64,000 nucleotides of DNA, taken from contig OZ316894.1 of assembly GCA_973895155.1 (NCBI GenBank), positions 5,232,944 through 5,296,943 of the forward strand, read 5' to 3'. Positions 10,325 to 61,595 of this stretch are shown one piece after another (positions within the stretch are counted from its first letter, which is position 1; every line of letters begins with the position of its first letter). Position numbers and translations under genes: made by a program. This stretch comes from Marsupella aquatica (taxonomy: Eukaryota > Plantae > Marchantiophyta). The notes beneath the pieces were generated by a model. The model was not told the DNA's origin. It was given only the letters and a program-made list of their open reading frames with translations, and made no database searches.

Positions 10325-13300
10325 TTATACCCGGCTGTCCTCAACAGGCGGTTTCCTTTTATAACATCTCGTTCCGTCTATATCAATGGACACATACGTC
10401 CAGCCCAAACTATCCATTTTCGAGTCGTCGAGTAAGGGACGTAAGTCTACGAAAACTCGCATGCCCTCCGTTTTCGTTGTCTGGGACGACTGCTCTGCTT
10501 GCAACCTGAGCTCGTCACTTTGCTCCCCTTGTGGCAATGCCCCTTGAACCCAGGACGACTTTCCCAAGCTTTCTGGCAGAGTCTTCAGTCTCGTGCAACT
10601 CTCAAGTGTCACTTCTTTCAGACAAGAGAGTTGCCCCAAACTGTCCGGAAGGCTCTCCAACGTACCACAATAGGAGATGGTGAGCCTTTCTAGAGAAGAG
10701 AGAGTTCCAAGCTCATCCGGCAATGTCTCCAAACGCGGCAACCACGACAGCCTCAGGGCCCGTAATGACGAAAGGCTACCCAAACCTGCCGGGAGGATCC
10801 GTGTCTTCCGCCCTATGAGAGTTAGCTCATGTTCAAAGCACCGAAAGTGTTCAAAAAGGTCGGGTGCCTCCTCATGACCATCACAATCAAATTCAACCTC
10901 TTGCAATGATGGAATTTGTCCGATGCCATCGAGTAGGCTTCTCGCGTTCTTTCCCGCCGCAAGAGTCACTTTCTTCAGAGACTGAAACTGCCGTACGCTC
11001 TCCGGCAGGCTTTCCAAGCTTCTTGACCCGATCGATAATTCTACCAGGGAAGAGAGGGTTCCAAAATTGTCGGGCAGCCTCTCCAATTTAGAGGACCCCA
11101 ATATCAACGTTCGAAGAGACTTCAGACGGGAAAAGCTGTCTGGTAGGGTCTGCAGCAAATTAGCATTATAAATGTACAAGACCTGCAGCTGAAGGAGCTG
11201 GCCAAAATCCACTGGCAACCTCTTCAATCTCATAGCGTTTTCGAGACTCAAGTCTCTCAAATTATGGAGCCCCCCCAAGCTCTCTGGCAGGCAGTCCAAG
11301 GTTGATGAATCAACTGACAAAAATTCTAGTGAGGAGAGCTTTCCTAAAGTGTCCGGCAACTCCTTCAACTGGGGGCATTGTAATTTGAAAGTTTTCAATA
11401 ATGAAAGCTCCTCCATAATTTCAGGGAGAAGCTTAGCGACCGAAGACATGAAAGTCAAATGACGCAGTGCATACAACTTACCCACACTCAGAGGGAGAGT
11501 CTCCACCCTATCGACATTAAGCTCCAATTCCTCCAGTAGAGCAAGCTCTCCTAGGCTTTCGGGCAATATCTCCAATTTTGGACAAACTATCTTTAACTGG
11601 CGGAGAGATTTCAGACAGCAGAAACTTTCAGGTAAAGTCTCTAGGTACGTAGATGAAATGTACAATTCCTTCAGTGCCGTCCATCCAGCGAAATCGTCGG
11701 GCAAGCTCCTTAGTTGTCCAGCCGTGCTAATGTGAAGTAATTCGAGTCCCGACAGAAGGCTGAAGCTGGGAGGGAGCCTTTCCAGAGCCAGGCCTGTCAA
11801 ATACAGCACTCGTAGAGAGGCTAAGTTGCCAAAAGCATCGCCCAACTCTTCGAAGCCATCGCAATGCTCTATCCTTAATTGCTCGAGTCCCGAAAGCCGG
11901 GAGAAAGACTGCGGTAGACACTTGATCAACGGGCAGTTCGTGATGCGCACTTCTTCCAATGACGTGAGTGAACTGCCAAAGGAGTCAGGGAGTTCTGCAA
12001 GCTCTTCACAGTCTTCAATTTCTAACGTTGCAAGGCGGGATAGATTCCCTAAGGATTCAGGTAACGCCAAAGATTTTATCCTGTCAAGTACAAGATGTTC
12101 GAGGGCTCGGAGGTTGCCTAGTGATTTCGGCAAAGTGAAAGACCTTAGACTCCTCAACTCCAACCGTCTCAACCGAGGTAGATTCCCAAAATTCTCAGGC
12201 AGATGGACCAAACCTGCTAGGTTAGATAGACACAAAATGCGCAGATTGGTCAGGTTCCCCAATGCTTCCAGAAACTCCTCTGGGACCCGAAAATGTGCTA
12301 CATCCAGCACAGCCAAATTCTCCATTTTCTTGAGGCTCAGCTCGAACTTTGACAATTTCAATAGGTCACCTCCGACAACCTCTAGAAGCGATATCTTCCT
12401 CGTGAGACCATTTCCCGAACCGTCTGTGGAGACACCAGAAAGATCTATGTATTTCAATCCCTTCAGTTTAGCCAGCGAATCCAAGTGAAGGGTCCTTTGG
12501 CGCTGGCGGGAATCATACCGGATCCTCAAACATTTTGTCCTTACCTCCACCTGCACATTTAAAGGTAATTATTAAATCATTGTTTCCTAGCTACAAGTAG
12601 TGGTGGACTAAGAAGGCAGATATAAGAAAAGTAGGTATGGTTGAATTTTCTCCTTCTAGCCGACCTTGCATGATTTTATTAGGTTCATCAGTTAACTGTA
12701 CTGGAAAGAACCGTTACCTCCTTGTCATTCAACCGATCCACTGCTGAGTCTGATGATGCATCATCAGTAGCCAAAACCATGATGTCATTGGAAATATTCT
12801 GAGCCAAGTCTCGAAGCTGCTCGTGGACCCATACTCGGTTCTTGATTTCTTTCACTAATGACCTGCTCACCAAGTTGTCCCACGTTGTTTGCATAGTTTG
12901 TGTTAGACTGCTCCATGCGGCAAGGGCCCGGTCCAACGGCTCTTCGAAGAAACATGACGCAGCCTCTGTGAACATCTCCTGTTCCTCTGGTAACAGCGCA
13001 TCGTAACTTATCCGCAAGGAAGCCCACAGTCTGTCCCTCTTCTCCCCAGTTATGGCTTGTGCTTCTCTCAACCTCTGTAGAGCTTCTATCCACACTTCAA
13101 CATTTCTGCCTCTGAGGTAAGTGCCGATAACTTCCAACGTCAACGGCAACCCACCACACTTTTTTACCACTGCATTGACTTTGTCAATAAGAAAGTCTGG
13201 AACATCCTTCGATTCAAATGCATGATGGCAGAATAGAGTCTTTGCATCATCGTCTTTCAAAAACCCTACCTCATGGACAATGCAACCTTTATAATATTTG

Positions 13301-15967
13301 AAAACTTCTTTGTCACGGCTTGTCATGATAACACAACTGCCCGCTCCAAAGTGCTCCAATTTTGGTAGAACTTTGAGCTGATCCTGCGCATCTACGTCAT
13401 CCATGGCAATTAAAGCTTTCTTGCTGCGCAAATGCTGCCACTCCATTGAACCCTTGCCTGGTTTCTTCCCATTGTGATGAAAGTGATTGAGAACCCGATC
13501 CTCCAATTTGTGTGATGGGTTGCCTTTTACATTATCCACAAAGCACGTGTATTCAAAGTCTTTGGAAAGAATGTTAAATGCTTGCGTTGCAAGAGTGGTC
13601 TTGCCAATCCCACCCATGCCAAAAATTCCAAGAATAGCTCCACCAACAAGCTTCTCCTTCACATCCAAGGCGCGTCTCTCCAAATCAAGAGGGAAGTTTG
13701 GAATCCCATGAACTTCATGAATAGGCACTTCCACCTGAAGAGATCAAATAATTTGGATCAGAACACTCGGAATTATAGATAGCAACTACAGTGTTCATAT
13801 GACAACAATCATTCATGGTTGAATCCAACAATATACGTAGTTGTAAATCATTTTGAAGGTGGAAGAATGGTGAACTATGAAGGTATTTGTATTTGGTTTT
13901 CACAGGGTATGAACGTTTAAGGAATCACTGTTACCACCAGCCACCTAGATTGAGCCTATCCAATTTTGCATATATAGGAAAAGTTTTGTCAAGAAAAGCA
14001 ACAGAGTTTTGGTCTATAGCCCTGGTGGACTATGTATCCTGAAATTACTGTCCGGTCAACATCTGTTATCTTGCCCAGCCAAATATTGACCGAGTGGGAT
14101 CGTAACAACTGGAAGTGCATTATCTCAATAACACTGAAGTTACCACAGACCCTCTAGATATAATTCAGAACAATCCGTAGCCATTGTCAGGCAGTGGTGT
14201 ACGTCAAAACTCTCTCTATATCTTTAGGAGGCTTGCTCTTTCTATCGATTCCTATTGGTTTCACTCATAGCCAAGTGTTGCAATACCGCATCCATGTTGG
14301 TTATGTACGTTAAGCGAAAATGGAAATTTTCAGTGTCTGCGTCATCCTTAATTTCCAATTACATATACCATCAACGACTATTCTGATTTTTGTTGTGGAC
14401 TTTTCAGTACATACTCTGAGAAATGCTTGCAATTCAGCAATGATTTCACTACGACGACATCACAAAGCCTAACTTAGGTGATGCGTTTAAAGTGACGAAT
14501 TGGGTGCCAATAACGGCTGCATAATCCTACCTTCATTTCGTCAACAACGTGCATGAGGAAGTCCTTGAGCTTGTGGAAGCTCCTCGAGGACTTGCTCCTT
14601 GCTCGACAAATGGAAAAGTGGTCTGCTCCGTCTACAATATTAAAATTGTACTTCCTCACAGATGCCTCAGGGCCCACCATGACTTCCCCATCCTGCCCAT
14701 CAATGACCAAAGGTTGAACTTCATTAGATCACAATATGTGCTTGTCTCCATTCTAGGCTTTCAGAGCTTGCTTCTCAACACCTCATAGTCGGCAATCCAC
14801 AGGAAAAAGTGCTTCTAAATTACTCAAAACATCAAATGTTAAATACTGCAATCAGTTTAATGCCGCTGGATACCATATGCTATAGAAGGATGAATGCTCC
14901 GACAGCGTGAATTGTAACTTCACGCAGAATACTACCAATGGCTATTCAATTACAACAGTAAGCAAAACGAAATTTTGACTAAATGATTAGATAGCAATCG
15001 CACTGTACCAAATTTGTAGGGCGACCTTCACCAAGTGATGCGAACTGCCACTTCTCATACACTTTCCGTATGGCATCAAATCGACTATTCAGCCGTTCCG
15101 TGTCTGTACTCAACGTTCTGAAGAACTTTAACAAAGCACCTCCCATTTTATCTGCCAGACGGTCTGCAGCAGGGCTTCCGTGATGAGGGGTAGCATAATC
15201 GAATACCCCTCTCATGCTGTTAGCAAACTTCTCCAACTTCGCCCTCTGAAAATCTCGGCTCACTTGGAGTCTCTCATGCGCTTGGCAACATAATTCTTTG
15301 ATCACCAATCCTCCAATGGAGTGGCCTACCAATACAATTGGACAATTCGACTCTTGCCCAATGTTTGCCATCAGAAGATCTGAGATCAGGTTTTCCCCTA
15401 AATTGAACATATCAATGTCATCGTTTGAAATATTTCTTAGGATTCCACTGTAAGACACTGAGAATATCTGAGCCTCAGGAATCTCCTCAACCAACCACTC
15501 CTGCGGCCAGATGCAGGAGTCATCCTCACATTTCCATGTAGACAGATGTGGGTCTCGGCTGTTTGGTCCCAACTGGAGACCATGGAAAAACACAACCTGT
15601 ATGCTTGGTCTGCCTGCAGGCTTGTACAACTGGTACACGGAGTCATTCACCTGAGAAAACCAATCACAATGAGAAAAAAGGGACTTCGAATGTCACCAGT
15701 CGTGCTGTGCAAGGATGACAGAGGCTCGACTCGGCTTAAAAGCAACGTCTTAAACAGCTTTACTGGGATTGCTAAGGTATAACTATAGCGATGCTCAGGA
15801 GCTTTCCAAATCGACTCAACTACAAAAACAAACCTAAAGCGATTTGGACAAATAGACTCAACGAAAAAGCAAAAAACCTCGAAGCCCGATTTCAGGGGAT
15901 CTTGGCTGTGTATTACCTGCAAAATTTGAGAAGACCCTTGCGGTCTGGATGAGGAGGCACCCAACAT
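10325..15967 (-). CDS. Alpha/beta-hydrolase-NB-ARC-LRR immune receptor (HNL), copy 1, intact, about 1365 aa
   Basis: Inferred exons 15967-15917, 15650-15009, 14692-14531, 13734-12718 and 12550-10325, all with GT..AG phase-0 introns conserved in four copies. Hydrolase motifs VVFFHGL, IWPQEWL, GHSIGG, TPHHGS and ADHFSIC. NB-ARC motifs GMGGIGKTT, AMDDVD, GSCVIMTSRD, CGGLPL and WVHEQLRDL. About 25 LRRs of the LxxLPxsfgxLxxLxxLxL type. Exon 1 is the least certain. Confidence 0.9.
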
Positions 15968-18928
15968 TGGGTGGCAGGGACTTAAGAGCTTTGGGGACAA
16001 TCAATGGGCCGTAGCCACAAGGGACCCACAAATAAGCTTAGGGAAAGCTACTGAGAATCGCTGTCTTGATCTTCAGCGTCTTTCTCATATGATTTAGGAG
16101 ACTCATCCACTCACTTAAAAGTAGAGCAAGTGGTGTACTCAGTTCAGGGCTCAATAGTCAATTGGAAGACGACTATTTGAGGAGGTCAGTACCTGTCCGG
16201 TAGAAGTTTGTGACCCAAGATTAGAAATAAATTTGACATCATGTCATTCTGAACTGAAGCAAAGTATAAATTGCATATGCCGACGTCTAATTTCAGGAAA
16301 ACGGTTCTCAGAAAAATGCCGCACGTATAAATCCGCAATGGTGACGTGGAGGCAACGGTCGGAATTGTGCATAGTTAATACGACCACCGACTTGGATTCT
16401 CCTCGATCCATATACATCAGGAGCTCCAGAGGTCTAGAGTGGCACCGACCTGAATACAAACTGAACAATTTGCTTTGCATAGAGCAAGGGAATGTTAATG
16501 TAAATGGTGACAATTTAGAGTAAGAGAAAACCACGCATTGGTCACGCTGGCAAAAAGAGAAAACTAGGCCGATCCTCCGTCTCTTCTTTCCCCTGGACTG
16601 CTGTGACTCTGCAATTGGACATTCGAGACAATTTCCAACACATTGTTAGTGATCTCTGTCTCACAGCATGTGTGGAAGGAAGACGACATAATTCTTCGCA
16701 CTTGCGGGAGGGCGACAGGGAATGCACGATGCAGTTGAGGTGGGAGAGACATTACCCAAAAACAAAAGCGGCGAACGACAATGGTATTTGATCACATCTG
16801 CTAAGGGGAATCAGCCATGGAGTGATTTCAGGTGAACGACAATGAAAATTGATAACATTGGCAAAGGGGAATCAGCTATGGAATGAATTGAGGTGGGAAA
16901 TGGACCAAGACATCTGTTCTTGAGCAGTGTCTGCCTCTGTCCATCGAGCCTTTCTGAGCTCCAGAGATTCGGAGGTGAGGGTGAACTTTTGAGATCAGGG
17001 AAGGATTGATTGAGAAGATCGAATCTCTTATGAAGAAGTCATTGTTAGGTTAGTTGCCTTGGGTACACGAGGGTCAGCCGGGCTCTCAACGTACAGGTAA
17101 GTAGCGTGATTAACTGAAATCGTCTGGGCATCCAGATAGATGAGCTTGCAAACTATAGCTCTTCACGAATTGGGTTTCTAGCAGTCCAGGACATCGCTAT
17201 TGAACAGGCCCAAACGAAGTGGGGAACAACATCACGAGAAAATGAACCCAAAACGCACAATTTTTGTGGCTAACCAAGATCTAGAAGTATCATGCAATAC
17301 CTGATGATCGCGGTTTCTGGTTCCTCAAGCTCACGTAAACAAATCGACCATCCCACAGCACAGTGAAGTTGACCTTGTCGAGGCCGTTCACGTCCCTTCA
17401 ATATCATCAGTCGTCCGCACTGTAGAACAATTGGAAATCAGAAGAAATCACGAAAAGATAGAAGAAACTGACGATAATGTGATGCCATGGTCACCTGGTG
17501 CACCGGTTCTAATCCAAGAGCCAAGCGAAAGCCGGCAGAACAAATGTGGACGGCTTTGTGATGTTTGTACGAGAATTCCTTGGGGTTGTGTGACTTTTGG
17601 TGCTCGGACCGATTGACCTGGCTTTAAAGTTTACCCTTTCAATGCTCATCCTACCAAGTCAGGACTTGAAGGAATTGTAAACTATAAATTTTCCTAGGGG
17701 CCCACCTTCCATCGAAGGTATACCGGCCCTACTGAGGAGTCCACCGAGGGACCATCGCGACTGTCAACCTGACGTGTTGAGTTTGTTCGCTTTTGCACTA
17801 GGTCGCCTGTTTCAGTTGAACGAAAGGACGGTTGCCCCTGCAGCGATCGGTTATAGTGGACGAGAGATTATTTTACATGATGATATGAGTTGAACTTTGT
17901 TGAACTGATGGATAATTTACGAGACCAAGCTCACTTGGAAAGTTGGTCAGTCCGGGAATTTCGCCCTTGCAACTTTGAGCTTGTTGATATCAAGAATCAT
18001 CTACAACCTTGTTTTGGAGACGAATAGCAGGTTGCAATGTGTTCAGATCCGGCCAGATCGATTTGTAGATTAATATAGATTTCAAACTTTGTGCAATTTG
18101 GCGGACAGCATTTCACACGTAGAATCAAGGCAGATGAAGGAAATCGATGTAATATTTGGGTAGAGCTGATAAAAGCACCTCCCAATTTTAAAGCAATCTG
18201 TACAAACTTAAGGAGGCATATTTGGGTTTTCTTCCGAAACTTCTCCATAGGAATACGAAATTAATGGATGGAAATTTGCCGGGCTCCTATCTTTCCACAG
18301 TTTGGTCCAGGAAAATTGCTGCTTTGGAAATTTTGCGTGTGGAAATATTGTTTCTGAGAAGGGACAAGATTGAATTTCAATATTTCTGTCACACACAAAT
18401 TTTGCTGCTTACCATCACCAGAATTGAGCCAGAGATATGCAAAATGTGGAATTCTGTAGATCAATTGAACCACATATCTCCTGCCCGACTCGCATTTGAA
18501 AGTTAGACATTGGAGAGTGACCATAACTTGTCACTACTTGACCTCTTGCCCACGCATGACAAAAGCACCTAATGCTAATGCCAGTTGCTTTGGATAAAAT
18601 CCTGATTGCATTAGTGAAAAGAGAGGGGATGGGAGACTGCACCATCCACTCGGGCATTCACTCGTCGCGGAGATTGAACCTTATTCTATTTCAGCATCCT
18701 CTGCATTACGTCTACGGCTGCATGAAATTGAGAACATGCAATTCAAGACCTAGGAGTTTGGAAAAGGAGAGACAACTCAAAATGACCTTCACTATGAGCT
18801 ATGTATTGGTACTGTGATTGCCGTCATAGCCACTTTCAGTAGAAATGTGCAAGCATTTTGAGTGATAAACTAAGGGCAGTGTTGTACTTCGTGGCACAGA
18901 AGTAGGCGACCATTGATTGACCATAACT

Positions 18929-19680
18929 GAGACTGCCACAAATGAACTCAATCTGGGGTGAAAGGAAGACCCTATCCATTTGTATCTCATCTGAGCACTG
19001 TTGGCTGCGGGAACTGGGAAACAAGTCCACCTATCCTCGTCAACGTTGTATGCAAGGACTCGACTGCCAGACCCCACCCTGAAAAAAATGTAATTACCAT
19101 CTCCCACAGGTTGACCAAATATATTGGCCACTTTCAGATCAGCAGGAGGGCCCCGAGCCAACTGCACCAATCGTAGAGAATTTAGATCAATCCTCAGCAC
19201 CTGCAGAGTCTCGGGATACAACCCCTTCGTTACCAACATCAGCCATTTGACTTGCAAACCACCACGTTGACGCTGACATTCTCGAGTACGTTGTCACAAC
19301 AACCTCAGTTCCTTGGAAGTCCCTTCCTCTGTGTTGATAACCAGGACACTCTGTGGGTTATTGACTGCCACCATGTAGAGAACTCCATTGAGATTCGTGG
19401 CAGTGGAAGGTCCCACAGATAAATCTCCTGAAACAGCAAAATCTTTGCTGTTCCAGGTTTCTGACTTGGAGTCGTAGATCTGCGCAAAATAGCCTCTCCC
19501 ACCACAGGAGAGGAGGATCAGCTTGTACGTCTCCGTAGATGGGTCTATCACCAAATTGTTACAGCTGACATAACTAGTCCTCAGCGGCCAAGCTGGCAAT
19601 AGCTTCCAGGTCCGGGTCAAAACGTTGGTCACATACAGATTATGCATCCCAGTCCCCGCTTCCGACCAAGGATTTCCCCA
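18929..19680 (-). pseudogene. F-box gene remnant, unit 2 (C-terminal half only)
   Basis: ORFs 19294-19647 and 18799-19257 match the unit 1 F-box C-terminal half, with a frameshift and a lost stop. The 5' half is replaced by about 250 bp of unrelated sequence (19680-19930). Confidence 0.8.
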
Positions 19681-22600
19681 TAGATTTCGTTGAAGAGGTG
19701 GAATAGACTAATCCACGAGAATCTAGACATGAGATTTCATGAGCCTCTGTTCATCAGGACGGTGTGAGATTGCTTGCACAGATTTGGAGATTTGGGATGT
19801 TCAGTGAGAGGATGGCATCACTGAGTGACAACATTCCATCATGAAGCTTCGACTGAGAGAATTACTCAATTCGTCGTACAATTAACCTACTTTCACGACG
19901 TCATTTGAGATCAGATGCCTTTAAAATCAGAGGCCCGCGGTGGGGCCTAATTCAAAGATCAATTGCATGATGGGACCTCAGATCCATTTGATACATGACA
20001 GCCAAAGAGGTGAATGCACATTGCTCCTCCCTGGGAAGGTCCTTGCGAAACATGGTCATTAGAAGAGACTGGTGCGCTAGCAACTTCATCACACGCAGCA
20101 GTCTGACCCGCGCGTGAACAAAAACTTTTAGTTCAAGCAAAAACGAAGATTCGGATAGATTATGGAATACCTGATTGGTGCCTACTTTGATACTCCTAGA
20201 TGATGATCAATCACCAACCCCGCCATGGCATAGTGAACTTGACCGTGACGAAGCCCTGCACTCTCCCTCCATACCGTCAGACCTGACCATTGAGAAATCA
20301 AGGAGACAAAGATGGATCACTGCCGGACGAGAGAAAGCATTGAGGCATTGTTGTCACCATAGATGTTCAGCTAACGGCGCACCGAGAGCCGGCAGAAGAC
20401 CTCTAGAGGACAAAAGTGTGGACCTCTGATATTCTCATCAACCATTTGTTTAACACCTTGGCTTACCTTATTGGGTTCGCCGAGCACATCGACGTATATT
20501 ATTGAAGATTCTGATTGGTCCATTGGTAAAAATATTCAGGAATTCTCTACACTCCATTGTTGAGGAGTATCTGAAGGACATATGAAAAGGCATTGCCGGC
20601 TTTCCAATCTGGTGAGCACCCCTAAAAATTTCTTCCAGTCTCCAGGAGAGCCACGGCGGGGCTAATTCAGCACATGTTGTGTACAGTATCCTCTAACTGA
20701 AGGACCTCTTTCGCTCCTGTTTGGGACCAGCTCTCAACTTTTCACTTAATTAATTTTGCTTTCGTGCTTATTTCCAATGCGGGGAGGTAGACTCAGGAAT
20801 TGAGGGATGTCAAAGATCGTATCACCTGAAGAACCTTGGGCGCCCAGCCAACGAAGGTGTAGTGCAGCTGTTCAACAAGTACATGGAACAAGGTCCTGCC
20901 CAGGCTTCTCCTGCCAACGGGCTTGACGTATGCATGGCGTCAGCCCTTCCGGAAGCACGCCAATATTGAGCTTCTTCAAATTCACCGAGCACGTTCATAC
21001 CACCATAGCCTGCAGGCATCCATCGTCAATTGAATCTTTGCGCGAGCCACTCTACCGGACGCCGAGATCTTAATTTCTGTTCCGATCGATCAATCGGCTC
21101 ACAGATGAAACCATCGCGATCACTTCGTCATAGCTATGTTGAATAACAAAAGAGACAGCGCTACCATTATCAAATTTCATGAGGGCTTTGTCACTGGGCA
21201 TCTAAGTTCTAAGTAAGCTTCAGGGAGTGTCCAATCTACTCTTTGAATCAATAGCTCCGATCCGTCTGCTGGTGATAAATGAGAATCAATTTGGCTTGCC
21301 CTTGCTCGAGCTGTGGACAAGCAATGAAGAGCTAGCTCATTCACAAACTCACTTCGACATGATCCCAGAGCAGATGTTGCCAGGGGATTGTGGGCAACTG
21401 TGGCAGGGAGGGTCTTGGGTTTTCTCAGGGTTGGTGGTGACTTTCTGGTCAAATTCATGGAGGCCTCTGTTCTCATGGTGGTTGTTAGTAACCCACCTAG
21501 CCTGTGTTGTCAATGGTAACTGATGTTGAGCAGAAGTGCTATTGGGCTGAATGAGATGGCGAGGCAATTGCATACTGCCGGGAGTGGGTGAGTCGGTATG
21601 GCAAGTGGATTTCAATTAGTTGGATTTCATTTAGTGTGCAAGTTGCAAGGAAAGTGATGGGTTGGAAATGGAAAAGGTGCACCCTACAGTGGCCCGTGAA
21701 GTTACCTAGACTCATAGTTAGTAAAAGTTGTCCCATGAACGTACTTCTCATGGTTAGGAAAAGATGTCACATTAATGCAACCTCACCTTAATCGAACTGC
21801 CAAGGAGGCTTCCCACCAGATGACATTTTGTAAAGCACACTATGAGAAGAAATACCAGTATTGCACATTATAGTGTTTAGGAAGATACAATATCATATAC
21901 TCTGAGTCCCTTCAATTTTCAGGCACTTTCATTGATCAGTTCCCAATCAGTCAATTTATCAGTCACTCCCATCAGCGGTCTTGCTAGTTTAGAAAACTCT
22001 ATCAAGCCTTCCCCTTAGGCAAATTTCTTCTTAGCTGATCTTGCTGAATGGCATTTTCTTTCAGTAGTCTTGCCAAGGAGGAAAATTCCACTCAGCTGAT
22101 CTTGCTCACTCATTGTTTTGCTTGGCGGCCTCAATGACTGAACATTTCTAGGGGAAAGAATCCACTTGTCCAAACTTGTTGATTCACTCTTTCAACTCGG
22201 CAGCCCTGCTGAGGAGTATGGTTCTTTACAAAAAGCACTGATGGAAAGACTGATACCTGATACCAACGAGTGATAACTAATGGGGTTATGACACTGTTGT
22301 CATGTTAGTTGGAGCGCTTGGTCTGGGGAGTAAGGACGAGTGGAAAGATAGCTGAACACCTGAGTCACTAGTATGACCTATTGATCACTCAACCTGGCAA
22401 TTAAAGATTTGCTCTGGAACCAAGCTATGAAGCTACAAAGTACTCTGTACCTAATATTTTGCTTGTTAAGTTGAAGCAACAGGTACGCCCTGTTGAGAGG
22501 TTTGGAAAATCTTCCCCAATTGTTGAGAAGAAATGAGCTGTCTCTAATATACATTTTCAAGTTACCAAAACCCTTGAAGGAGGCCTTTCTATGTGCATGG

Positions 22601-24591: not shown

Positions 24592-27500
24592 TTACACCCC
24601 GGCTGTCCTCAACAGGCGGTTTCCTTTCATAACATCTCTCTAAAGTATCAGAGGGCACATACGTCCAGCCCAAACTTTCCATTTGGAGTGGTCAAGTAAG
24701 GGACACAGTGTTACGAAAACTCGCATGCCCTCCGTTTTCGTTGTCTGGGCCGACTGCTCTGCTTTGCAACCTGAGCTCGTCACTTTGCTCCCTTTGTGGC
24801 AATGCCACTTGAACCGAGGACGACTTTCCCAAGCTTTCTGGCAGAGTCTTCAGTCTCCAGCAATACTCAAGTGTGACTTCTTTCAGAGAAGAGAGTTGCC
24901 CCAAACTGTCCGGAAGGCTCTCCAACGTACGACAACTCAAGATGGTGAGCCCTTCTAGAGAAGAGAGAGTTCCAAGCTCATCCGGCAATGTGTCCAAACT
25001 CCCCAACCTCTCCAGACTCAGGGCCCTTAATGACGAAAGGCTACCCAAACCTGCCGGGAGGATCCGTGTCTCCCGCCCTGTGAGAGTTAGCTCATGTTCA
25101 AAGCACCGAAAGTGTTCAAAAAGGTCGGGTGCCTCCTCATGCCCATCACAATCAAATACAACCTTTTGCAATGATGGAATTTGTCCGATGCCATCGAGTA
25201 GGCTTCTCGCGTTCTTTCCCGCCGCAAGAGTCACTTTCTTCAGAGACTGAAACTGCCGTACGCTCTCCGGCAGGCTTTCCAAGCTTCTTGACCGGATAGA
25301 GAATTCTTCCAGGGAAGAGAGGGTTCCAAAATCGTCGGGCAGCCTCTCCAATATAGAGCACTCCAATTTCAACCTTTGAAGAGACTTCAGACGGGAAAAG
25401 CTGTCTGGTAGGGTCTGCAGCTCATCAGCATCAAAACTGTCCAAGTACTGCAGCTGAAGGAGCTGGCCGAAATCCTCTGGCAACCTCTTCAATCTCTTAG
25501 CGTTTCTGAGACTCAATTCTCTCAAATTATGGAGCCCCCCCAAGCTCTCTGGCAGGCAGTCCAAGGTTGATGAATCAATTGACAACACTTCTAGTGAGGA
25601 GAGCTTTCCTAAGGTGTCTGGCAACTCCTCCAACTGGGGGCATTGTAATTTGAAAGTTTTCAATGAAGAAAGCTCCTCCATACTTTCAGGAAGAAGCTTA
25701 GCAACCGAAGACTTGAAAGTCAAATCACGCAGTGCATACAAGTTACCCACACTCAAAGGGAGAGTCTCCACCCTATCGACATTAAGCTCCAATTCCTCCA
25801 GTAGAGCAAGCTCTCCCAGGCTTTCGGGCAATATCTCCAATTTCGGACAAACTATCTTTAACTTGCGGAGAGACTTCAGACCGCAGAAACTTTCAGGTAA
25901 AGTCTCTAGGTGCGCAGATGAAATGTACAATTCCTTCAGTGCCGCCCATTCAGCGAAATCGTCGGGCAAGCTCCTTAGTTGTCCAGCCTCGCTAATGTGA
26001 AGTAATTCTAGTCCCGACAGAAGGCTGAAGCTCGGAGGGAGCCTTTCCAGCGCCACGCCATCCAAATACAGTACTCGTAGAGAGGCTAAGTTGCCAAAAG
26101 CATCCCCCAACTCTTCGAAGCCACGGCACCGCTCTATCCTTAATTGCTTGAGTCCCGAAAGCCGGGAGAAAGACTGCGGGAGACACTTGATCAACGGGCA
26201 CCTCCTGATGCGCACTTCTTCCAATGACGTGAGTGAACTGCCAAACGAGTCAGGGAGACCTGCAAGCTCTTCACAGTCTTCAATTTCTAACGTTGCAAGG
26301 CGGGATAGATTCCCTAAGGATTCAGGTAACGCCAAATATTGTATACTGGCAAGTTCAAGATGTTCGAGGGCTCGGAGGTTGCCAAGTGATTTCGGCAAAG
26401 TGAGAGACCTTAGATTCATCAACTCCAACCGTCTCAACCGAGATAGATTCCCAAAATTCTCAGGCAGATGGACCAAACCTTGTAGGTTAGATAGACACAA
26501 AATGCGCAGATTGGTCAGGTTCCCCAATGCTTCCGGAAACTCCTCTGGAATCCAAAGATTTGATAGTTCCAGCACAGCCAAATTCTCCATTTTGTTGAGG
26601 CTCAGCTCGAACTTTGACAATTTCAATAGGTCACGTCCGACAACCTCTAGAAGCGATATCTTCCTCGTGAGACCATTTCCCGAACCGTCTGTGGGGACAC
26701 GAGAAAGATCTATGTATTTCAATCCCTTCAGTTTAGCCAGCGAATCCAACTGAAGGGTCCTTCGGCGCTGGCGGGAATCAGAACGATACCAGAGCCTCAA
26801 GCATTTTGTCCTTACCTCCACCTGCACATTTAACGGTAATTATTAAATGATTATTTCCTAGCTACAAGTAGTGGTCGACTAAGAAGGCGAATATAAGGAA
26901 AGTAGGTATGGTTGAATTTTCTCCTTCTAGCCTACCTTGCATGATTTTAATAGGTACATCAGTTTACTGTACTGGAAAGAACCGTTACCTCCTTGTCATT
27001 CAACCGATCCACTGCTGAGTCTGATGATGCATCATCAGCATCATCAGTAGACAAAACCATGATGTCATTGGAAATATTCTGAGCCAAGTCTCGAAGCTGC
27101 TCATGGACCCACACTTCGTTGTTGATTTCTTTCACCAATGACCTGCTCACTAAGTTCTCCCACGTTGTTTGCATAGTTTGCGTTAGACTGCTCCATGCGG
27201 CAAGGGCCCGGTCCAATGGCTGTTCGAAAAAACATGACGCAGCCTCTGTGAACATCTCCTGTTCCTCTGGTAACAGGGCATCATAGCTTATCCTCAAGGA
27301 AGCCCACACTCTGTCCCTCTTCTCCCCAGTTATGGCTTGTGCTTCTCTCAACCTCTGTAGAGCTTCTATCCACACTTCAACATTTCTTCCTCTGAGGTAA
27401 GTGCCGATGACTTCCAACGTCAACGGCAACCCACCACATTTTTTTACCACTGCATTGACTTTGTCAATGAGAAAGTCTGGAACATCCTTCGATTCAAATG

Positions 27501-30212
27501 CATGATGGCAGAGTAGAGCCTTTGCATCATCGTCTTTTAAAAACTCTACCTCATGGACAATGCAACCTTTATAATATTTGAAAACTTCTTTGTCACGGCT
27601 TGTCATGATAATACAACTGCCCGCTCCAAAGTGCTCCAAGTTTGGTAGAGCTTTGAGCTGGTCCTGCGCATCTACGTCATCCATGCAATTAAAGATTTCT
27701 TGCTGCGCAAATGCTGCCACTCCATTGAACCCTTGCCTGGTTTCTTCCCATTGTGATGAAAGTGATTGAGAACCCGATCCTCCAATTTGTGTGATGGGAT
27801 GCCTTTTACATTATGCACACAGCACGTGTATTCAAAGTCTTTGGAAAGAATGTTAAATACATGCCTTGCAAGAGTGGTCTTGCCAATCCCACCCATGCCA
27901 AAAATTCCAAGAGTACCTCCACCAACAAGGTTCTCCTTCACATCCAAGGCGCGTCTCTCCAAATCAAGAGGGAAGTTTGGAAGCCCATGAACTTCATGAA
28001 CAGGCACTTCCACCTGACGAGATCAAATAATTTGGATCAGAACACTCGGAATTATAGATAGCAACTACAGAGTTCATATGACAACAATCATTCATGGTTG
28101 AACCCAGCGGTATGCTTAGCTCTAAAAACATTCCGAAGCTAGAGGAGCATATGGTGAACTAGGAGGGTATTTGGGTTTTGGAGGATGTGAACATTTAAGA
28201 AAACGATGTTGCGACTAGCCAGCTAGATTGAGGCTATACAACTTTCAGAAATATGTGGAAAGCAAGAGACTTTTGGTCTATGGCCCGTGCAGACTCTTTC
28301 ACTCCTCAAAGCTGGACCTCTGATATGATCGATTTAACAACTATCCAGTCAATATCTATGGTCTTGCCCATGGAACCAGATGTTGACCAAGTGAGATTAT
28401 AACAACTGGAAGTAAATTATCCCACTAGCACTGAACTTACCGCCTAAGGTATATATAGCATTCATAACAATCTGTGGACATTCTTCGTGGTCTACTTCAG
28501 AAAAGTCTCTATCATTTTAGGGGACTTGCTCTCTGTATCCACTCTTATTGTTTCTCCTCGAAGCCAAGTTTTGCAATGCAACAGTTACTTTGGGTTTGAG
28601 AGAACGAAAATCTTGAGTTTCTTCTTCATCCTAAATTTCCGATAACATATGTCATCAACAATTCCTATGATTATTTGTTGCCAGCTTTCAAGGAAATACT
28701 CTGTGACACGCTAACAACTCAACGTTAAGATGAGATCACGAAGCCAAACGTAGGAACAATTCAGTGCCAGCCATCGGCTGCATAATCCTACCTTCATATC
28801 GTCAACAATGTGTATGAGGAAGTCCTTCAGTTTGTGGAAGCTCCTTGACGACTTGGTCCTTGGTCGACAAATGGAAAAGTGGTCTGCTCCGTCTACAACA
28901 TTAAAATTGTCCTTCCTCACAGATGCCTCAGGGCCCACCATGACTTCCCTACCAAACCAGCCCTGCCCATCAATGGCCAAAAGTTGAACTTCATTAGATC
29001 ACAACTGTGTGCCTGTCTCCATCTTAGGCTTTGAGAACAGACTTTTCCACACCTCAGAATCGGCAGTCCAAAGGAACAAGTGCTTGTAGATTACTCAAAT
29101 CTTACTCCAGCATTGAGAAAATGCCGCTGGAAACCATATGCTAGAAGGTTGAATGCTCTGACAGCATCAATTGTTACTTTATGCAGAATTCTACCAATTG
29201 CTACTCATTCACAACAGTAGGCAATGCGAGATTCTGATTAAATGATTGGGTAGCAATCGCAGTTGTACCAAATTTGTAGGGCGGCCTTCTCCAAGTCCTG
29301 CAAACTGCCATTTCTCATACACTTTACGTATGGTATCAAATCGACTATTCAGCCGTTCCGTGTCTCTACTCAACGTTTTGAAGAACGTTATCAAAGCACC
29401 TCCTCTTTTATCTACCAGACGGTCTGCAGCAGGGCTTCCGTGATGAGGGGTAGCATAATAAAATACCCCGCTGATGTTGTTCACCAACTTCTCCAACTTC
29501 TTCCTCTCGAAATCTCGGCGCACTTGGAGTCTCTCATGCGCTTGGCAACACAATTCTTTGATCACCAATCCTCCAATGGAGTGGCCCACCAATACAATTG
29601 GACAATTCGATTCTTGCCCAATGTTGGCCATCAGAAGATCTGAGATCAGATTTTCCCCTAAATTGAACATATCATTGTTATCGTTTGAGTTCTTTCTTAG
29701 GATTGCACTGTAAGACACTGAAAATATCTGAGCTTCAGGAATGTCCTCAACCAACCACTCCTGCGGCCAGATGCAGGAGTCATCCTCACATTTCCATGTA
29801 GACAGATGTGGGTCTCTGCTGTTTGGCCCCAACTGGAGGCCATGGAAAAACACAACCTGTATGATCGTTCTGCCTGCAGGCTTGTACAACTGGTACACGG
29901 AGTCATTTACCTGAGAAAACCAATCACAATGAGAAAAAAGGGACTGCGAATGTCACCAGTCGTGCTCTGCATGGATGACAGAGGCTCGACTCGGCTTGGA
30001 AGCAACGTCTTGAACAGCTTTAATGGCATTGCTAAGGGATGCTCAAGAGCTTTCCAAATTGACTCAACTACAAAAACAAACCTAAAGCGATTTGGACAAG
30101 TAGACTCAACGAAAAAGCAAAAAACCTCGAAGCCCGATTTTAGGGGATCTGGACTGTGTATTACCTTAAAAGTTTGAGAAGACCCTTGCGGTCTGGATGA
30201 GGCACCCAACAT
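24592..30212 (-). pseudogene. HNL copy 2, frameshifted as assembled (may be intact in vivo)
   Basis: Exons 30212-30165, 29910-29269, 28962-28792, 28013-26989 and 26821-24592. A 1 bp deletion at 27685 just before Walker B, and further 1 bp indels at 24763-65, 24682-84 and 24597-600 in the C-terminal tail. All motifs are otherwise retained. Confidence 0.85.
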
Positions 30213-33275: not shown

Positions 33276-33317
33276 TGGCAGGGTTGGTGATGGCTTTCTG
33301 GTCAAATTCATGGAGGC

Positions 33318-48845: not shown

Positions 48846-49061
48846 AGTCGATTTGTAGAAAAAAAATAGATTTCAAATCTTGTGCAATTTGGCGGACAGC
48901 GATTTCGCACGTAGAATCAAGGCAGATGAAGTAAATCGATGTAATATTTGGGTAGTCGATTTGTAGAAAAAAATAGATTTCAAATCTTGTGCAATTTGGC
49001 GGACAGCGAATTTGCACGTAGAATCAAGGCAGATGAAGGAAATCGATGTAATATTTGGGTA
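48846..49061. repeat. ~108 bp tandem duplication
   Basis: agtcgatttgtagaaaaaa...gtaatatttgggta occurs twice in succession. The homologous region of other units has a single copy. Confidence 0.9.
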
Positions 49062-49535
49062 GAGCTGATAAACACACCTCGCAAATTCAAAATTTCAGTC
49101 ACCCAAAAATTTTGCTGCTTACCATCACGAGAATTGAGCCAGAGATAAATGTGGAATTCTGTAGATCAATTGAACCACTCCTGCCCCATGAGCGGGTACT
49201 CGCATTTGAAAAGTTAAACATTGGAGAGTGACCAAAATTGTCACAACCTGCCCTCTTGCCCAGGCATTACCCAAGCACCTAATGCTAATGCCAGTTGCTT
49301 TGGATCCAGAGTGCGCTGGTGAAGGGAGAGGGGATGGGAGACTGCACCATCCACTCGGGCATTCACTCGTTGCGGAGATTGTACTTTATTCTATTTCAGC
49401 ATCCTTTGCGTTAGCTCGTCTGCCGCTGCATGAAATTGCGAACATGCAATTCAGGACCTAGGAGTTTGGAAAAGGAGAGACAACTCAAAATGATCTTCAC
49501 TATATATCAGCTATGTATTGGTACTCTGATTGCGG

Positions 49536-53325: not shown

Positions 53326-53434
53326 TGCCGTCATAGCCACTTTCAGTAGCAATGTGCAAGCATTTAGAGTGATAAGATAAGGGCAGTGTTGTACGTCGTG
53401 GCACAAAGTAGGCGACCATTGATTGACCATAAAC

Positions 53435-53670
53435 TTAGACTGCCACAAATGGACTCAATCTGGGGTGAAAGGAAGACCCTCTCCATTTGTATCTCATCTG
53501 AGCACTGGTGGCTGCGGAAATTGGGAAACATGTCCACCTATCCTCGTCAACGTTGTATGCAAGGACTCGACTGCCAGAGTCCACCCTAAAAAAAATGTAA
53601 TTACTATCTCCCACGGGTTGACCAAATATATTGCCCACTTTCAGATCAGCGGGAGGGCCCCGAGCCAACT
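53435..53670 (-). pseudogene. F-box gene remnant, unit 4 (last ~78 codons)
   Basis: Near-identical to 1750-1985, then joined at 53671 to sequence homologous to 7956 (a deletion of about 6 kb relative to unit 1). Confidence 0.8.
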
Positions 53671-56051: not shown

Positions 56052-59000
56052 TTATACCCGGCTGTCCTCAACAGGCGGTTTCCTTTTATAACATCTCGTT
56101 CCGTCTATATCAATGGACACATACGTCCAGCCCAAACTATCCATTTTCGAGTCGTCGAGTAAGGGACATAAGTCTACGAAAACTCGCATGCCCTCCGTTT
56201 TCGTTGTCTGGGACGACTGCTCTGCTTGCAACCTGAGCTCGTCACTTTGCTCCCCTTGTGGCAATGCCCCTTGAACCGAGGACGACCTTCCCAAGCTTTT
56301 CTGGCAGCATCTTCAGTCTACTGCAATACTGAAGTCTCACTTCTTTCAGACAAGAGAGTTGCCCCAAACTGTCCGGAAGGCTCTCCAACGCACCGGAGAT
56401 GGTGAGCCTTTCTAGAGAAGAGAGAGTTCCAAGCTCATCCGGCAATGTCTCCAAACGCGGCAACCAATGCAGACGCAGGGCCCTTAATGACGAAAGGCTA
56501 CCCAAACCTGCCGGGAGGATCCGTGTCTTCCGCCCCCGCCCTCTGAGAGTTAGCTCATGTTCAAAGCACCGAAAGTGTTCAAAAAGGTCGGGTGCCTCCT
56601 CATGCCCATCACAATCAAATTCAACCTCTTGCAATGATGGAATTTGTCCGATGCCATCGAGTAGGCTTCTCGCGTTCTTTCCCACCGCAAGAGTCACTTT
56701 CTTCAGACACCGAAACTGCCGTACGCTCTCCGTCAGGCTTCCCAAGCTTCTTGACCGGATAGATAATTCTTCCAGGGAAGAGAGGGTTCCAAAATTGTCG
56801 GGCAGCCTCTCCAATTTAGAGCACTCCAATTTCAACCTTTGAAGAGACTTCAGACGAGAAAAGCTGTCTGGTAGGGTCTGCAGCTCATCAGCATCAAAAA
56901 TGTCCAATAACTGCAGCTGAAGGAGCTGGCCGAAATCCTCTGGCAACCTCTTCAATCTCTTAGCGTTTCTGAGACTCAATTCTCTCAAATTGTGGAGCCC
57001 CCCCAAGCTCTCTGGCAACTCCTCCAACTGGGGGCATTGTAATTTGAAAGTTTTCAAAAAAATAACCTCCTCCATACTTTCAGGGAGAAGCTTAGCAACC
57101 GAAGACTTGAAAGTCAAATAACGCAGTGCATACAAGTTACCCACACTCAGAGGAAGAGTCTCCACCCTATCGACATCAAGCTTCAATTCCTCCAGTAGAG
57201 CAAGCTCTCCTAGGTTTTCGGGCAATATCTCCAATTTTGGACAAACTATCTCTAACTGGCGGAGAGACTTCAGACAGCAGAAACTTTCAGGTAAAGTCTC
57301 TAGGTGCGCAGATGAAATGTACAATTCCTTCAGTGCCGTCCATTCGGCGAAATCGTCGCGCAAGCTCCTTAGTTGTCCAGTCGTGCTAATGTGAAGTACT
57401 TCTAGTCCCGAGAGAAGGTTGAAGCTCGGAGGGAGCCTTTCCAGAGCCACGCCTGTCAAATACAGTACTCGTAGAGAGGCTAAGGTGCCAAAAGCATCCC
57501 CCAACTCTTCGAAGCCACGGCACCGCTCTATCCTTAATTGCTTTAGTCCCGAAAGCCGGGAGAAAGACTGCGGTAGACACTTGATCAACGGGCACCTCCT
57601 GATGCGCACTTCTTCCAATGACGTGAGTGAACTGCCAAACGAGTCAGGGAGACCTGCAAGCTCTTCACAGTCTTCAATTTCTAACGTTGCAAGGCGGGAT
57701 AGATTCCCTAAGGATTCAGGTAACGCCAAATATTGTATACTGGCAAGTTCAAGATGTTCGAGGGCTCGAAGGTTGCCAAGTGATTTCGGCAAAGTGAGAG
57801 ACCCTAGACCCCTCAACTCCAACCGTCTCAACCGAGATAGATTCCCAAAATTCTCAGGCAGATGGACCAAACCTTCTAGGTTACATAGACACAAAATGCG
57901 CAGATTGGTCAGATTCCCCAATGCTTCCGGAAACTCCTCTGGAATCCAAAAATTCCTTACTTCCAGCACAGCCAAATTCTCCATTTTGTTGAGGCTCAGC
58001 TCGAACTCTGACAATTTCAATCGGTCACCTCCGACAACCTGTAGAAGCGATATCTTCCTCGTGAGACCATTTCCCGAACCTTCTGTGGAGACACCATAAA
58101 GATGTATGTATTTCAATCCCTCCAGTTTGACCAGCGAATCCAACTGAAGTGTCCGTTGGCTATCGTGGGATCTACCAAAATACCAGAGCCTCAACATTTT
58201 GTCCTTACCTCCACCTGCACATTTAAAAGGAATTATTAAATGATTATTTCCTAGCTACAAGTAGTGGTCTACTAAGAAGGCAAATATAAGGAAAGTATAT
58301 AGGGTTGAATTTCTCTTTTAGCCTACCTTGCATGATTTTAACAGGTACATCAGTTGACTGTACTGGAAAGAACAGTTACCTCCTTGTCATTCAACCGATC
58401 CACTGCTGAGGCTGATGATGCATCATCAGTAGCCAAAACCATGATGTCATTGGAAATAGTCTGAGCCAAGTCTCGAAGCTGCTCATGGACCCATACTCGG
58501 TTCTTGATTTCTTTCACCAATGACCTGCTCACCAAATTGTCCCACGTTGTTTGCATAGTTTGCGTTAGATTGCTCCATGCGGCAAGGGCCCGGTCCAATG
58601 GGTGTTTGAAGAAATATGACGCAGCCTCTGTGAACATCTCCTGTTCCTCTGGTAACAGGGCATCATAGCTTATCCTAAAGGAAGCCCACACTCTGTCCCT
58701 TTTCTCTCCTGTTATGGCTTGTGCTTTTCTCAACCTCTGTAGAGCATCTATCCACACTTCAACATTTCTTCCTCTGAGGTAAGTGCCGATAACTTCCAAC
58801 GTCAACGGCAACCCACCACATTTTTTTACCACTGCATTGACTTTGTCAATGAGAAAGTCTGGAACAACCTTCGATTCAAATGCATGATGGCATAATAGAG
58901 TCTTTGCATCATCGTCTTTCAAAAACTCTACCTCATGGACAATGCAACCTTTATAATATTTGAAAACTTCTTTGTCACGACTTGTCACGATAACACAACT

Positions 59001-61595
59001 TCCCGCTCGAAAGTGCTCCAATTTTGGTAGAACTTTGAGCTGATCCTGCGCATCTACGTCAACCATGGCGATTAAAGCTTTCTTGCTGCGCAAATACTGC
59101 CACTCCATTGAACCCTTGTGTGTTTTCTTCCCATTGTGATGAAAGTGATTGAGAACCCGATCCTCCAATTTGTGTGATGGGATGCCTTTTACATTATCCA
59201 CAAAGCACGTGTATTCAAAGGCTTTGGAAAGAGTGTTAAATGCTTGCATTGCAAGAGTGGTCTTGCCAATCCCTCCCATGCCGAAAATTCCAAGAGCAGC
59301 TCCACCAACAAGCTTCTCCATCACATCCAAGGCGCGTCTCTCCAAATCAAGAGGGAAGTTTGGAAGCCCATGAACTTCATGAACAGGCACTTCCACCTGA
59401 CGAGATCAAATAATTTGGATCAGAACACTCGGAATTATAGATAGCAACTACAGAGTTCATATGACAACAATCATTCATGGTTGAACCCAGCGGTATGCTT
59501 AGCTCTAAAAACATTCCGAAGCTAGAGGAGCATATGGTGAACTAGGAGGGTATTTGGATTTTGGAGGATGTGAACATTTAAGAATACGATGTTGCGACTA
59601 GCCAGCTAGATTGAGGCTATCCTACTTTCAGAAATATGTGGAAAGCAAGAGACTTTTGGTCTATGGCCCGTGCAGACTCTTTCACCCCTCAAAGCTAGAC
59701 CTCTGGTATGATCGATTTAACAACTATCCAGTCAATATCTATGGTCTTGCCCATGGAACCAGATGTTGACCAAGTGAGATTATAACAACTGGAAGTAAAT
59801 TATCCCACTAGCACTGAACTTACCGCCTAAGGTATATATAGCATTCATAACAATCTGTGGACATTCTTCGTGGTCTACTTCAGAAAAGTCTCTATCATTT
59901 TAGGGGACTTGCTCTCTGTATCCACTCTTATTGTTTCTCCTCGAAGCCAAGTTTTGCAATGCAACAGTTACTTTGGGTTTGAGAGAACGAAAATCTTGAG
60001 TTTCTTCTTCATCCTAAATTTCCGATAACATATGTCATCAACAATTCCTATGATTATTTGTTGCCAGCTTTCAAGGAAATACTCTGTGACACGCTAACAA
60101 CTCAACGTTAAGATGAGATCACGAAGCCAAACGTAGGAACAATTCAGTGCCAGCCATCGGCTGCATAATCCTACCTTCATATCGTCAACAATGTGTATGA
60201 GGAAGTCCTTCAGTTTGTGGAAGCTCCTTGACGACTTGGTCCTTGGTCGACAAATGGAAAAGTGGTCTGCTCCGTCTACAACATTAAAATTGTCCTTCCT
60301 CACAGATGCCTCAGGGCCCACCATGACTTCCCTACCAAACCAGCCCTGCCCATGAATGGCCAAAGGTTGAACTTCATTAGATTACAACTGTGTGCCTGTC
60401 TCCATCTTAGGCTTTGAGAACAGACTTTTCCACACCTCAGAATCGGCAATCCAAAGGAACAAGTGCTTGTAGATTACTCAAATCTTACTCCAGCATTGAG
60501 AAAATGCCGCTGGAAACCATATGCTAGAAGGTTGAATGCTCTGACAGCATCAATTGTTACTTTATGCAGAACTCTACCAATTGCTACTCATTTACAACAG
60601 TAGGCAATGCGAGATTCTGATTAAATGATTGGGTAGCAATCGCAGTTGTACCAAATTTGTAGGGCGGCCTTCTCCAAGTCCTGCAAACTGCCATTTCTCA
60701 TACACTTTACGTATGGTATCAAATCGACTATTCAGCCGTTCCGTGTCTCTACTCAACGTTTTGAAGAACTTTAGCAAAGCACCTCCTCTTTTATCTGCCA
60801 GACGGTCTGCAGCAGGGCTTCCGTGATGAGGGGTAGCATAATAAAATACCCCGCTGATGTTGTTCACCAACTTCTCCAACTTCTTCCTCTCGAAATCTCG
60901 GCGCACTTGGAGTCTGTCATGCGCTTGGCAACACAATTCTTTGATCACCAATCCTCCAATGGAGTGGCCCACCAATACAATTGGACAATTCGATTCTTGC
61001 CCAATGTTGGCCATCAGAAGATCTGAGATCAGATTTTCCCCTAAATTGAACATATCATTGTTATCGTTTGAGTTCTTTCTTAGGATTGCACTGTAAGACA
61101 CTGAAAATATCTGAGCTTCAGGAATGTCCTCAACCAACCACTCCTGCGGCCAGATGCAGGAGTCATCCTCACATTTCCATGTAGACAGATGTGGGTCTCT
61201 GCTGTTTGGCCCCAACTGGAGGCCATGGAAAAACACAACCTGTATGCTCGTTCTGCCTGCAGGCTTGTACAACTGGTACACGGAGTCATTTACCTGAGAA
61301 AACCAATCACAATGAGAAAAAAGGGACTGCGAATGTCACCAGTCGTGCTCTGCATGGATGACAGAGGCTCGACTCGGCTTGGAAGCAACGTCTTGAACAG
61401 CTTTAATGGGATTGCTAAGGGATGCTCAAGAGCTTTCCAAATTGACCCAACTACAAAAACAAACCTAAAGCGATTTGGACAAATAGACTCAACGTAAAAG
61501 CAAAAAACCTGGAAGCCCGATTTTAGGGGATCTGGACTGTGTATTACCTTAAAAATTTGAGAAGACCCTTGCGGTCTGGATGAGGCACCCAACAT
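56052..61595 (-). pseudogene. HNL copy 4, frameshifted as assembled, lacks one LRR, Walker B D-to-V
   Basis: Exons 61595-61548, 61293-60652, 60345-60175, 59396-58380 and 58214-56052. A -1 at 58193-94 gives an immediate TGA in exon 5, and there is a +1 at 56297-300. In-frame 69 bp deletion at about 57011. AMVDVD replaces AMDDVD. Confidence 0.85.

Follow-up and report, generated by a model that had tools for sequence, protein, structure and literature searches.

Four tandem genes for receptors of the nucleotide-binding leucine-rich-repeat kind (NLRs) with an alpha/beta-hydrolase head were found in a 64,000-nt stretch of the liverwort Marsupella aquatica (contig OZ316894.1), which was analysed as a whole and is called the window below. 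Judged by their sequences, the genes are members of the described hydrolase-NB-ARC-LRR class (HNL or Hyd-NLR; LRR, leucine-rich repeat). From conserved residues, a predicted structure and analogy with known systems, we read the array receptor as a putative serine acyl-hydrolase that would be triggered by oligomerisation, and we assign this reading a probability of about 50%. Copy 1, the sole copy with an open reading frame, is likely a chimera, in which identities and trees point to different HNL lineages for the head and the NB-ARC-LRR body, with the switch at intron 3.

In a six-frame motif scan of the window, VFFHG, GHSIG, TPHHG, LGEGRPT, ADHFSIC, GMGGIGKTT and GLPL occurred four times each, all on the minus strand. 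A first-pass annotation had listed VFFHGL, GHSIG, TPHHGS, LGEGRPT and ADHFSIC in four copies, and this was borne out, with the P-loop, GLPL and LRRs following downstream. It had also placed the Ser codon of copy 1 (15320-15318) and the His codon (14620-14618) exactly, the latter on a 162-bp exon of its own. Alignment of the four copies led to a single gene model with five exons, in which every intron is GT-AG and phase 0 and the first exon of copy 1 has 17 codons. The splicing of copy 1 was deduced from GT-AG borders, phase 0 and collinearity with gene models of the leafy liverwort Calypogeia fissa, with which the spliced model agrees, first exon included. Gene starts are 14.2, 12.9 and 18.5 kb apart, and the DNA flanking the copies was duplicated together with the genes (identity 84-97%). 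Copy number was counted within the 64-kb window, inside which no fifth HNL copy was found. The elements of the array are as follows; P0001 and P0040 are two C. fissa proteins.

10325..15967, minus strand: HNL copy 1, 1365 residues, sole open reading frame of the four (gene model, Pfam, C. fissa collinearity); exons 15967-15917, 15650-15009, 14692-14531, 13734-12718 and 12550-10325 (gene model)
15009..15650, minus strand: copy 1 exon 2, core of the hydrolase, containing the oxyanion HG, Ser128 (15320-15318), TPHHGS and Glu225 (15029-15027) (motifs, Pfam); as an oddity, Asp168 in strand beta6 (family comparison)
14531..14692, minus strand: copy 1 exon 3 (162 bp), His256 (14620-14618) and the last head helix (motifs, predicted fold)
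13735..14530, minus strand: copy 1 intron 3, phase 0, likely site of the ancestry switch between a P0001-type head and a P0040-type NB-ARC-LRR (exon-by-exon identity)
12718..13734, minus strand: copy 1 exon 4, NB-ARC with P-loop, Walker B, GLPL and the family-typical VHE form of MHD (Pfam, motifs)
10325..12550, minus strand: copy 1 exon 5, LRR domain and short tail (Pfam, motifs)
24592..30212, minus strand: HNL copy 2, uninterrupted in the head; triad at Ser 29580-78, Glu 29289-87, His 28881-79 (motifs, gene model)
37565..43106, minus strand: HNL copy 3; Ser 42461-59, Glu 42171-69, His 41761-59 (motifs, gene model)
56052..61595, minus strand: HNL copy 4, uninterrupted through head and NB-ARC; triad at Ser 60963-61, Glu 60672-70, His 60264-62 (motifs, gene model)

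The HNL class was defined in 2012 by an alpha/beta-hydrolase at the N terminus, an NB-ARC and LRRs, with support from rapid amplification of cDNA ends in Marchantia and with three phase-0 introns, lying within the hydrolase, between hydrolase and nucleotide-binding site (NBS), and between NBS and LRR (accessible parts of PMC3352924). The array genes combine an alpha/beta-hydrolase (DUF676, and a fold search with a stand-in) with an NB-ARC followed by LRRs and the three phase-0 introns. Their best NB-ARC matches were proteins of C. fissa, Riccia and Marchantia, followed by TIR-NLRs (TNLs), and in both matches and trees the NBS groups with liverwort HNLs, near TNLs. The annotation had called the genes HNLs, and their architecture, introns and NB-ARC affinity fit that definition. 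The MHD motif of the array NB-ARCs (12718-13734 and paralogues) reads VHE, with His-Glu present in 37 of 61 family rows; since it is not the usual MHD, an Asp-to-Val autoactivation design may need adapting.

The Pfam scan covered exons 2, 4 and 5 of copy 1. DUF676 was matched in exon 2 at 22.4 bits (cut-off 20.3), NB-ARC in exon 4 (E 3e-34) and LRR families in exon 5 (LRR_14, E 2e-54). PGAP1 (PF07819) scored 16.1 and 17.3 bits, in exon 2 only and below its gathering score of 24.3, and neither EDS1-family profile (Lipase_3, EP) was matched in the three exons. The head carries the sesB-like/SERAC1-like motif set (HG, GHSxGG, TPHxGS, E-x-x-P-T, DH-x-x-IC) and the sequence features of a serine hydrolase, namely a Ser in G-x-S-x-G, an oxyanion HG and a His after the last strand. 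Look-alikes in the ESM Atlas were DUF676 clusters from fungi, plants and bacterial three-component systems, and one fungal cluster carries a NACHT sigma amyloid motif. The proposed kinship with SERAC1 and SesB-like heads was therefore supported by DUF676 and the ESM Atlas, while that with PGAP1 was not (16.1 vs 24.3 bits).

The C. fissa P0001 head, 77% identical, was modelled with AlphaFold from a 58-row alignment as a stand-in for the window head, giving a predicted local distance difference test score (pLDDT) of 91.5 and a predicted template modelling score (pTM) of 0.91. The model places the Ser at a strand-turn-helix elbow, the Glu where the next-but-one strand ends and the His beyond the last strand, so that the three residues of the array heads would sit in canonical hydrolase positions, at least in the stand-in. 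The top fold match of this head was the Legionella phospholipase PlaB (Z 20.3, root-mean-square deviation 3.1, 224 aligned residues), followed by the lipase BlEst2 (Z 18.3) and many esterases (Z 15.7-17.6); Foldseek returned monoglyceride lipases. A fold shared with lipases and esterases is by itself no proof of function. Sequence searches of the PDB gave weak elbow matches (best E 0.25 for the single sequence and 0.0038 for the profile), too short to place the acid.

The identity of the acid and the fate of the nucleophile were followed across the head family. The survey covered 171 proteins, taken from 29 matches (818 candidates) and the best 150 of 3212 matches. Of the 184 head domains found, 146 were kept after removal of a fungal outgroup and of 37 domains with less than 85% coverage; this set over-weights divergent heads. 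The elbow residue was Ser in 82, Cys in 42, Gly in 17 and Asp in 5, which puts one of the two nucleophiles, Ser or Cys, at 124 of 146 elbows; the 77 heads directly before a P-loop showed 40, 23, 11 and 3, respectively. A search with the NB-ARC, from which nine seed-plant TIR-NLR matches were left out, added 25 bryophyte proteins, 20 of them with an elbow (19 of 20 Ser). An acid at the LGE site was present in 79/82 Ser heads, 30/42 Cys heads, 10/17 Gly heads and 1/5 Asp heads. Specifically, Glu was found in 78/82 Ser heads vs 41/64 non-Ser heads, and among the five conserved acidic columns this one alone falls where Ser is missing. LGEGRPT had accordingly been well chosen by the annotation as the acid candidate. 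None of the other candidate acids (PEAS Glu, DH Asp, AEN Glu, IDM Asp) was retained, because each stayed steady in non-Ser heads (p 0.55-0.8). The residue preceding VVP, which we take to be the Asp site of LCAT/lipase-type enzymes, was not conserved in the head family. The His was kept in 76/82 Ser heads and 15/17 Gly heads and lost in all 5 Asp heads, and Ser, Glu and His are present in all four heads of the array. Many family members cannot be serine hydrolases, because their elbows hold Gly or Asp and the nucleophile changed repeatedly; Ser-Cys changes alone number 24. Going by these patterns, we read the Ser heads as mostly live enzymes in a family that would also include Cys variants and dead members.

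The same hydrolase head was seen in the bryophyte proteins P0005, P0006, P0010, P0012, P0015, P0018, P0019, P0004, P0017 and P0007, where its fusion partners include a U-box (seven proteins), a B-lectin domain, or an NB-ARC with ARM/HEAT and TPR repeats. In Marchantia paleacea, a caspase domain stands behind three tandem hydrolase heads. Such fusions suggest an effector toolkit wider than NLRs alone. The relatives P0035, P0031, P0049, P0032 and P0042 contain heads in tandem pairs or triplets, and in some of them Ser and Cys elbows occur within one protein. Marchantia polymorpha has stand-alone heads of 320 residues with Ser-Glu-His (P0081/P0172, annotated SERAC1/DUF676); these may be effectors acting in trans, or the fused heads may derive from them.

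The best protein match of copy 1 came from C. fissa, with 77% identity over exon 2 (29 matches among 818 candidates). Against P0001, exons 1-3 were 65/77/69% identical and the NB-ARC 32%, whereas against P0040 exons 1-3 reached 35/47/37%, the NB-ARC 63% and the start of the LRR 57%. Identity crosses over at residues 285/286, the intron-3 junction. In 64-row trees, the window heads were sister to P0001/P0002 (98), and the window NB-ARCs grouped with P0040 in a separate clade (100). In approximately unbiased (AU) tests on 28 of the 64 rows, picked after inspecting the trees, the grouping of the heads was rejected for the NB-ARC tree (p 2e-48), and those of the NB-ARCs for the head tree (p 4e-5 and 3e-4); these p-values are descriptive, because the groups were named after the first trees. 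No database protein that pairs a window-type head with a window-type body was found among the protein matches surveyed. A single swap in the window lineage would be the simplest history, told from trees without a root and from P0040 as a single gene model. Members of the NB-ARC clade that holds the window copies have heads that fall in about five parts of the head tree, so head exchange looks recurrent. Exon shuffling at the intron between head and NB-ARC was suggested for the origin of the HNL class itself (Xue 2012; accessible parts of PMC3352924).

Selection differs along the receptor. The ratio of nonsynonymous to synonymous substitution (dN/dS) between copies was 0.27-0.47 for the head, counted over five of the six pairs since the heads of copies 2 and 4 differ at no synonymous site; the NB-ARC gave 0.35-0.65 and the LRR 0.88-1.27. 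Exposed xxLxLxx positions of the LRR were variable at 42 of 122 sites, compared to 75 of 464 other sites (p 2e-5). The heads are under purifying selection, and the exposed LRR residues diversify. Copies 2 and 4 are near-identical base for base over the head and intron 3, copies 1 and 4 share the 3' end, and copies 1 and 3 share the middle. The copies are mosaics, the common mark of NLR clusters under conversion and unequal crossing-over. With its one open copy, the array is an ordinary cluster of the birth-and-death type. The annotation had described an expanding, active cluster; mosaicism and LRR diversification agree with this, but three of the four copies are broken as assembled. Likewise, its four intact receptors hold for the triad residues, present in every head, and not for the uninterrupted frame, which copy 1 alone possesses.

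In copy 2, Walker B is hit by a 1-bp deletion (27686) that leads to a stop at codon 401, and the tail has three more 1-bp indels. Copy 3 carries 1-bp frameshifts at 43077, 42351 and 39376 with a stop at codon 18; its triad is split across frames because the frameshift at 42351 falls between the Ser and TPHHGS. Copy 4 is shifted by 1 bp at 58195, with a stop at codon 634, and again at 56301; it lacks one LRR (69 bp deleted) and has Val in place of the Walker B Asp, which is invariant in 61/61 relatives. No nonsense substitution occurs in any of the four copies. Copies 2-4 hold nine private 1-bp exonic indels, eight of them inside homopolymer runs. Their 206 private exonic substitutions include no stop, whereas neutral change would have given about 8. 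Variants common to two copies are seldom 1-bp indels; introns show 1, against 153 substitutions. Either long-read assembly error or very recent loss would suit this pattern, and we consider assembly error somewhat the likelier of the two. Against pure assembly error stand the Walker B Val of copy 4 and an unrelated 1-bp NB-ARC deletion (13413) in one contig of run X3. Four public runs, consisting of contigs that span introns, gave two indel rows over 12040-13500, neither matching the breaks of copies 2, 3 or 4; the runs are probably other haplotypes, because they show neither the private bases of copy 1 nor the in-frame insertions seen in copies 2 and 4.

The HNL class and the hypothesis of a lipase output are both already in print. 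The review PMC10952240 proposes, in its accessible portion, lipid hydrolysis, lipid binding and EDS1-like action for hydrolase-headed NLRs. Two isolated Marchantia heads caused a hypersensitive response and ion leakage in Nicotiana benthamiana (Chia 2024, PMC11218826 section 8), a source whose accessible text leaves the biochemistry of the heads open. Overexpression of a full HNL is among the constructs shown with cell-death symptoms in PMC12513842, and the accessible part of PMC12856790 adds no mechanism. Fungal sesB-like NLR heads were proposed as direct lipase effectors, and look-alike heads occur as effectors in fungal NLR/amyloid and bacterial conflict systems (ESM Atlas; accessible parts of PMC4986451 and PMC3321046). 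In a literature search made mostly at record level, we found neither a published test of a plant Hyd-head triad nor a published description of head exchange between HNL lineages.

If the array receptor is a serine acyl-hydrolase set off by oligomerisation, its LRR is predicted to sense a pathogen molecule. Known resistosomes undergo NB-ARC nucleotide exchange and oligomerisation on activation, and by analogy the array receptor would do the same. The clustered heads would then cleave a lipid or another acyl ester via Ser128-Glu225-His256, and membrane damage or a lipid signal may follow and end in cell death. Splicing and expression of the copies, oligomerisation, catalysis and substrate are what we infer here rather than observe. 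The enzymatic output claimed by the annotation is plausible in this respect; its novelty was not upheld (PMC10952240, accessible portion), and a nucleophile that is not invariant leaves room for a non-catalytic role. Several further observations weigh against catalysis. The nucleophile is the least conserved site of the triad, with Gly or Asp in 22 of 146 heads, and on a tree of 151 rows the elbow residue switches at least 36 times, compared with a mean of 57 after shuffling. Among 62 conserved columns, the LGE Glu comes second to a Leu in its drop in non-Ser heads, and kinship-controlled pairs keep the Ser-Glu direction (2.8 vs 0.3 pairs) without significance (median p 0.5). Copies 1 and 3 have Asp in strand beta6, where 142/146 relatives have Phe or Tyr, and all copies have Gly at a column with Val in 118/146 relatives; the rare-residue count of the copy 1 and 3 heads (4-5) nevertheless equals the family median. 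Three of four copies are frameshifted as assembled, and section 8 of PMC11218826 has catalytic mutants for TIR and kinase heads and none for hydrolases.

The scatter of the elbow (Ser in just 82/146 heads, Gly or Asp in 22, many independent switches), next to conserved fold residues and a His retained in 15/17 Gly heads, would suit a head that acts as a scaffold. It would have a lipase fold or bind small molecules or lipids in an EDS1-like manner, the oligomer would recruit a partner or membrane, and the triad would be incidental; binding and EDS1-like roles are among the options left open in the accessible portion of PMC10952240. We consider this rather unlikely, since Ser is replaced chiefly by Cys, another nucleophile, acid loss is concentrated in non-Ser heads, all 5 Asp heads are also without His, as expected of dead enzymes, and no EP or Lipase_3 match was obtained in exons 2, 4 and 5. 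The frameshifts may alternatively be real, with copies 2-4 as young pseudogenes that act as conversion donors, copy 1 perhaps impaired, and a locus that need not signal. The nine private exonic indels, the Walker B Asp-to-Val substitution at an invariant site, the beta6 Asp common to copies 1 and 3, the deletion at 13413 in the run X3 contig and the broken F-box remnants within the duplicated unit (see below) all point that way. But the lack of nonsense changes among the 206 private substitutions, the 8/9 indels in homopolymer runs, as in long-read errors, the rarity of 1-bp indels among two-copy variants (1 vs 153 intron substitutions) and dN/dS below 1 in head and NB-ARC make such decay unlikely. 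Quite improbable is a head that serves as an integrated bait, mimicking an effector-targeted host hydrolase while a helper NLR signals, so that a head swap would alter recognition. While heads were exchanged between NB-ARC lineages and fused to U-box, caspase, B-lectin and NB-ARC-ARM/TPR proteins, constraint is strongest on the head and variation greatest in the LRR, the reverse of what a bait would show. Moreover, Marchantia heads trigger cell death on their own (PMC11218826, section 8), and the receptor protein has no other signalling domain, both of which tell against a bait.

Apart from the receptors, the window holds the following elements.

18802..19704, minus strand: F-box/kelch-type beta-propeller remnant, duplicated with the NLR unit (Pfam, unit comparison)
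1624-2265, 4207-4893, 32977-33286 and 53312-53674: other F-box/kelch remnant pieces (unit comparison)
50709-52277, plus strand: 522-codon open frame with a Pro-rich middle, in a unique block between copies 3 and 4 (open reading frame)

The F-box/kelch remnants are broken in each duplicated unit, and the leftmost is split by about 2 kb holding 108-bp and 54-bp repeats. The 50709-52277 frame gave no Pfam match; in the ESM Atlas it pointed weakly (score 0.87) to a cluster in which Transposase_32 makes up 13%, and it is probably retroelement-derived. An additional copy of the unit's upstream region, with no gene behind it, lies at 48266-49536 and is likely the remnant of a deleted unit. The left edge of the window (1-1095) is unique, and the duplicated unit reaches the right edge (62430-64000), so the array may continue beyond it.

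Two things here deserve to be followed, the head swap and the Ser/Cys/Gly polymorphism. What hydrolase-headed plant NLRs do biochemically is a question already acknowledged as open (PMC10952240, PMC11218826) and not one raised by this locus, but the family survey makes it directly testable by supplying a concrete triad (Ser128, Glu225, His256) together with natural Ser/Cys/Gly variants. The swap suggests that heads are portable between sensors, which bears on the understanding and engineering of NLR outputs. More tentatively, it is possible that bryophyte Hyd-NLRs trade whole heads (Ser, Cys or dead, and so of differing chemistry) between NB-ARC-LRR sensors at one phase-0 intron, and that the array reflects a recent swap of a Ser-Glu-His head onto a sensor with a Cys-headed relative in C. 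fissa. If true, plant resistosomes would have a third output, in the form of acyl hydrolysis or transfer, with chemistry evolving independently of recognition.

Among known systems, EDS1, PAD4 and SAG101 are lipase-like alpha/beta-hydrolase fold proteins of plant NLR signalling. They differ from the array in being separate downstream proteins with an EP domain, from another hydrolase family and without NB-ARC fusion. Legionella PlaB is the closest solved fold, and its activity depends on the oligomeric state (10.1101/2020.09.01.246603, accessible part). It offers an analogy only, as it shares 15% identity, uses Asp as the acid, is not an NLR, and is inactive as a tetramer. Fungal sesB-like domains and SERAC1 belong to the same head family as the array (DUF676; Pfam, ESM Atlas), but the fungal receptors join NACHT or NB-ARC to WD/ANK/TPR repeats, sometimes with amyloid coupling in trans, and have no LRR, whereas the array has LRRs. 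C. fissa P0040, CAM6102488.1, the relative in the NB-ARC-LRR, has Cys at the elbow where the window has Ser. The nearest likeness is to the HNL/Hyd-NLRs of liverworts and mosses (PMC3352924, PMC11218826, accessible parts), with the same architecture, phase-0 introns and NB-ARC affinity. From the described members, the array genes differ by one extra phase-0 intron after the 17-codon first exon, by a head and body that likely come from different HNL lineages, and by frameshifts in three copies.

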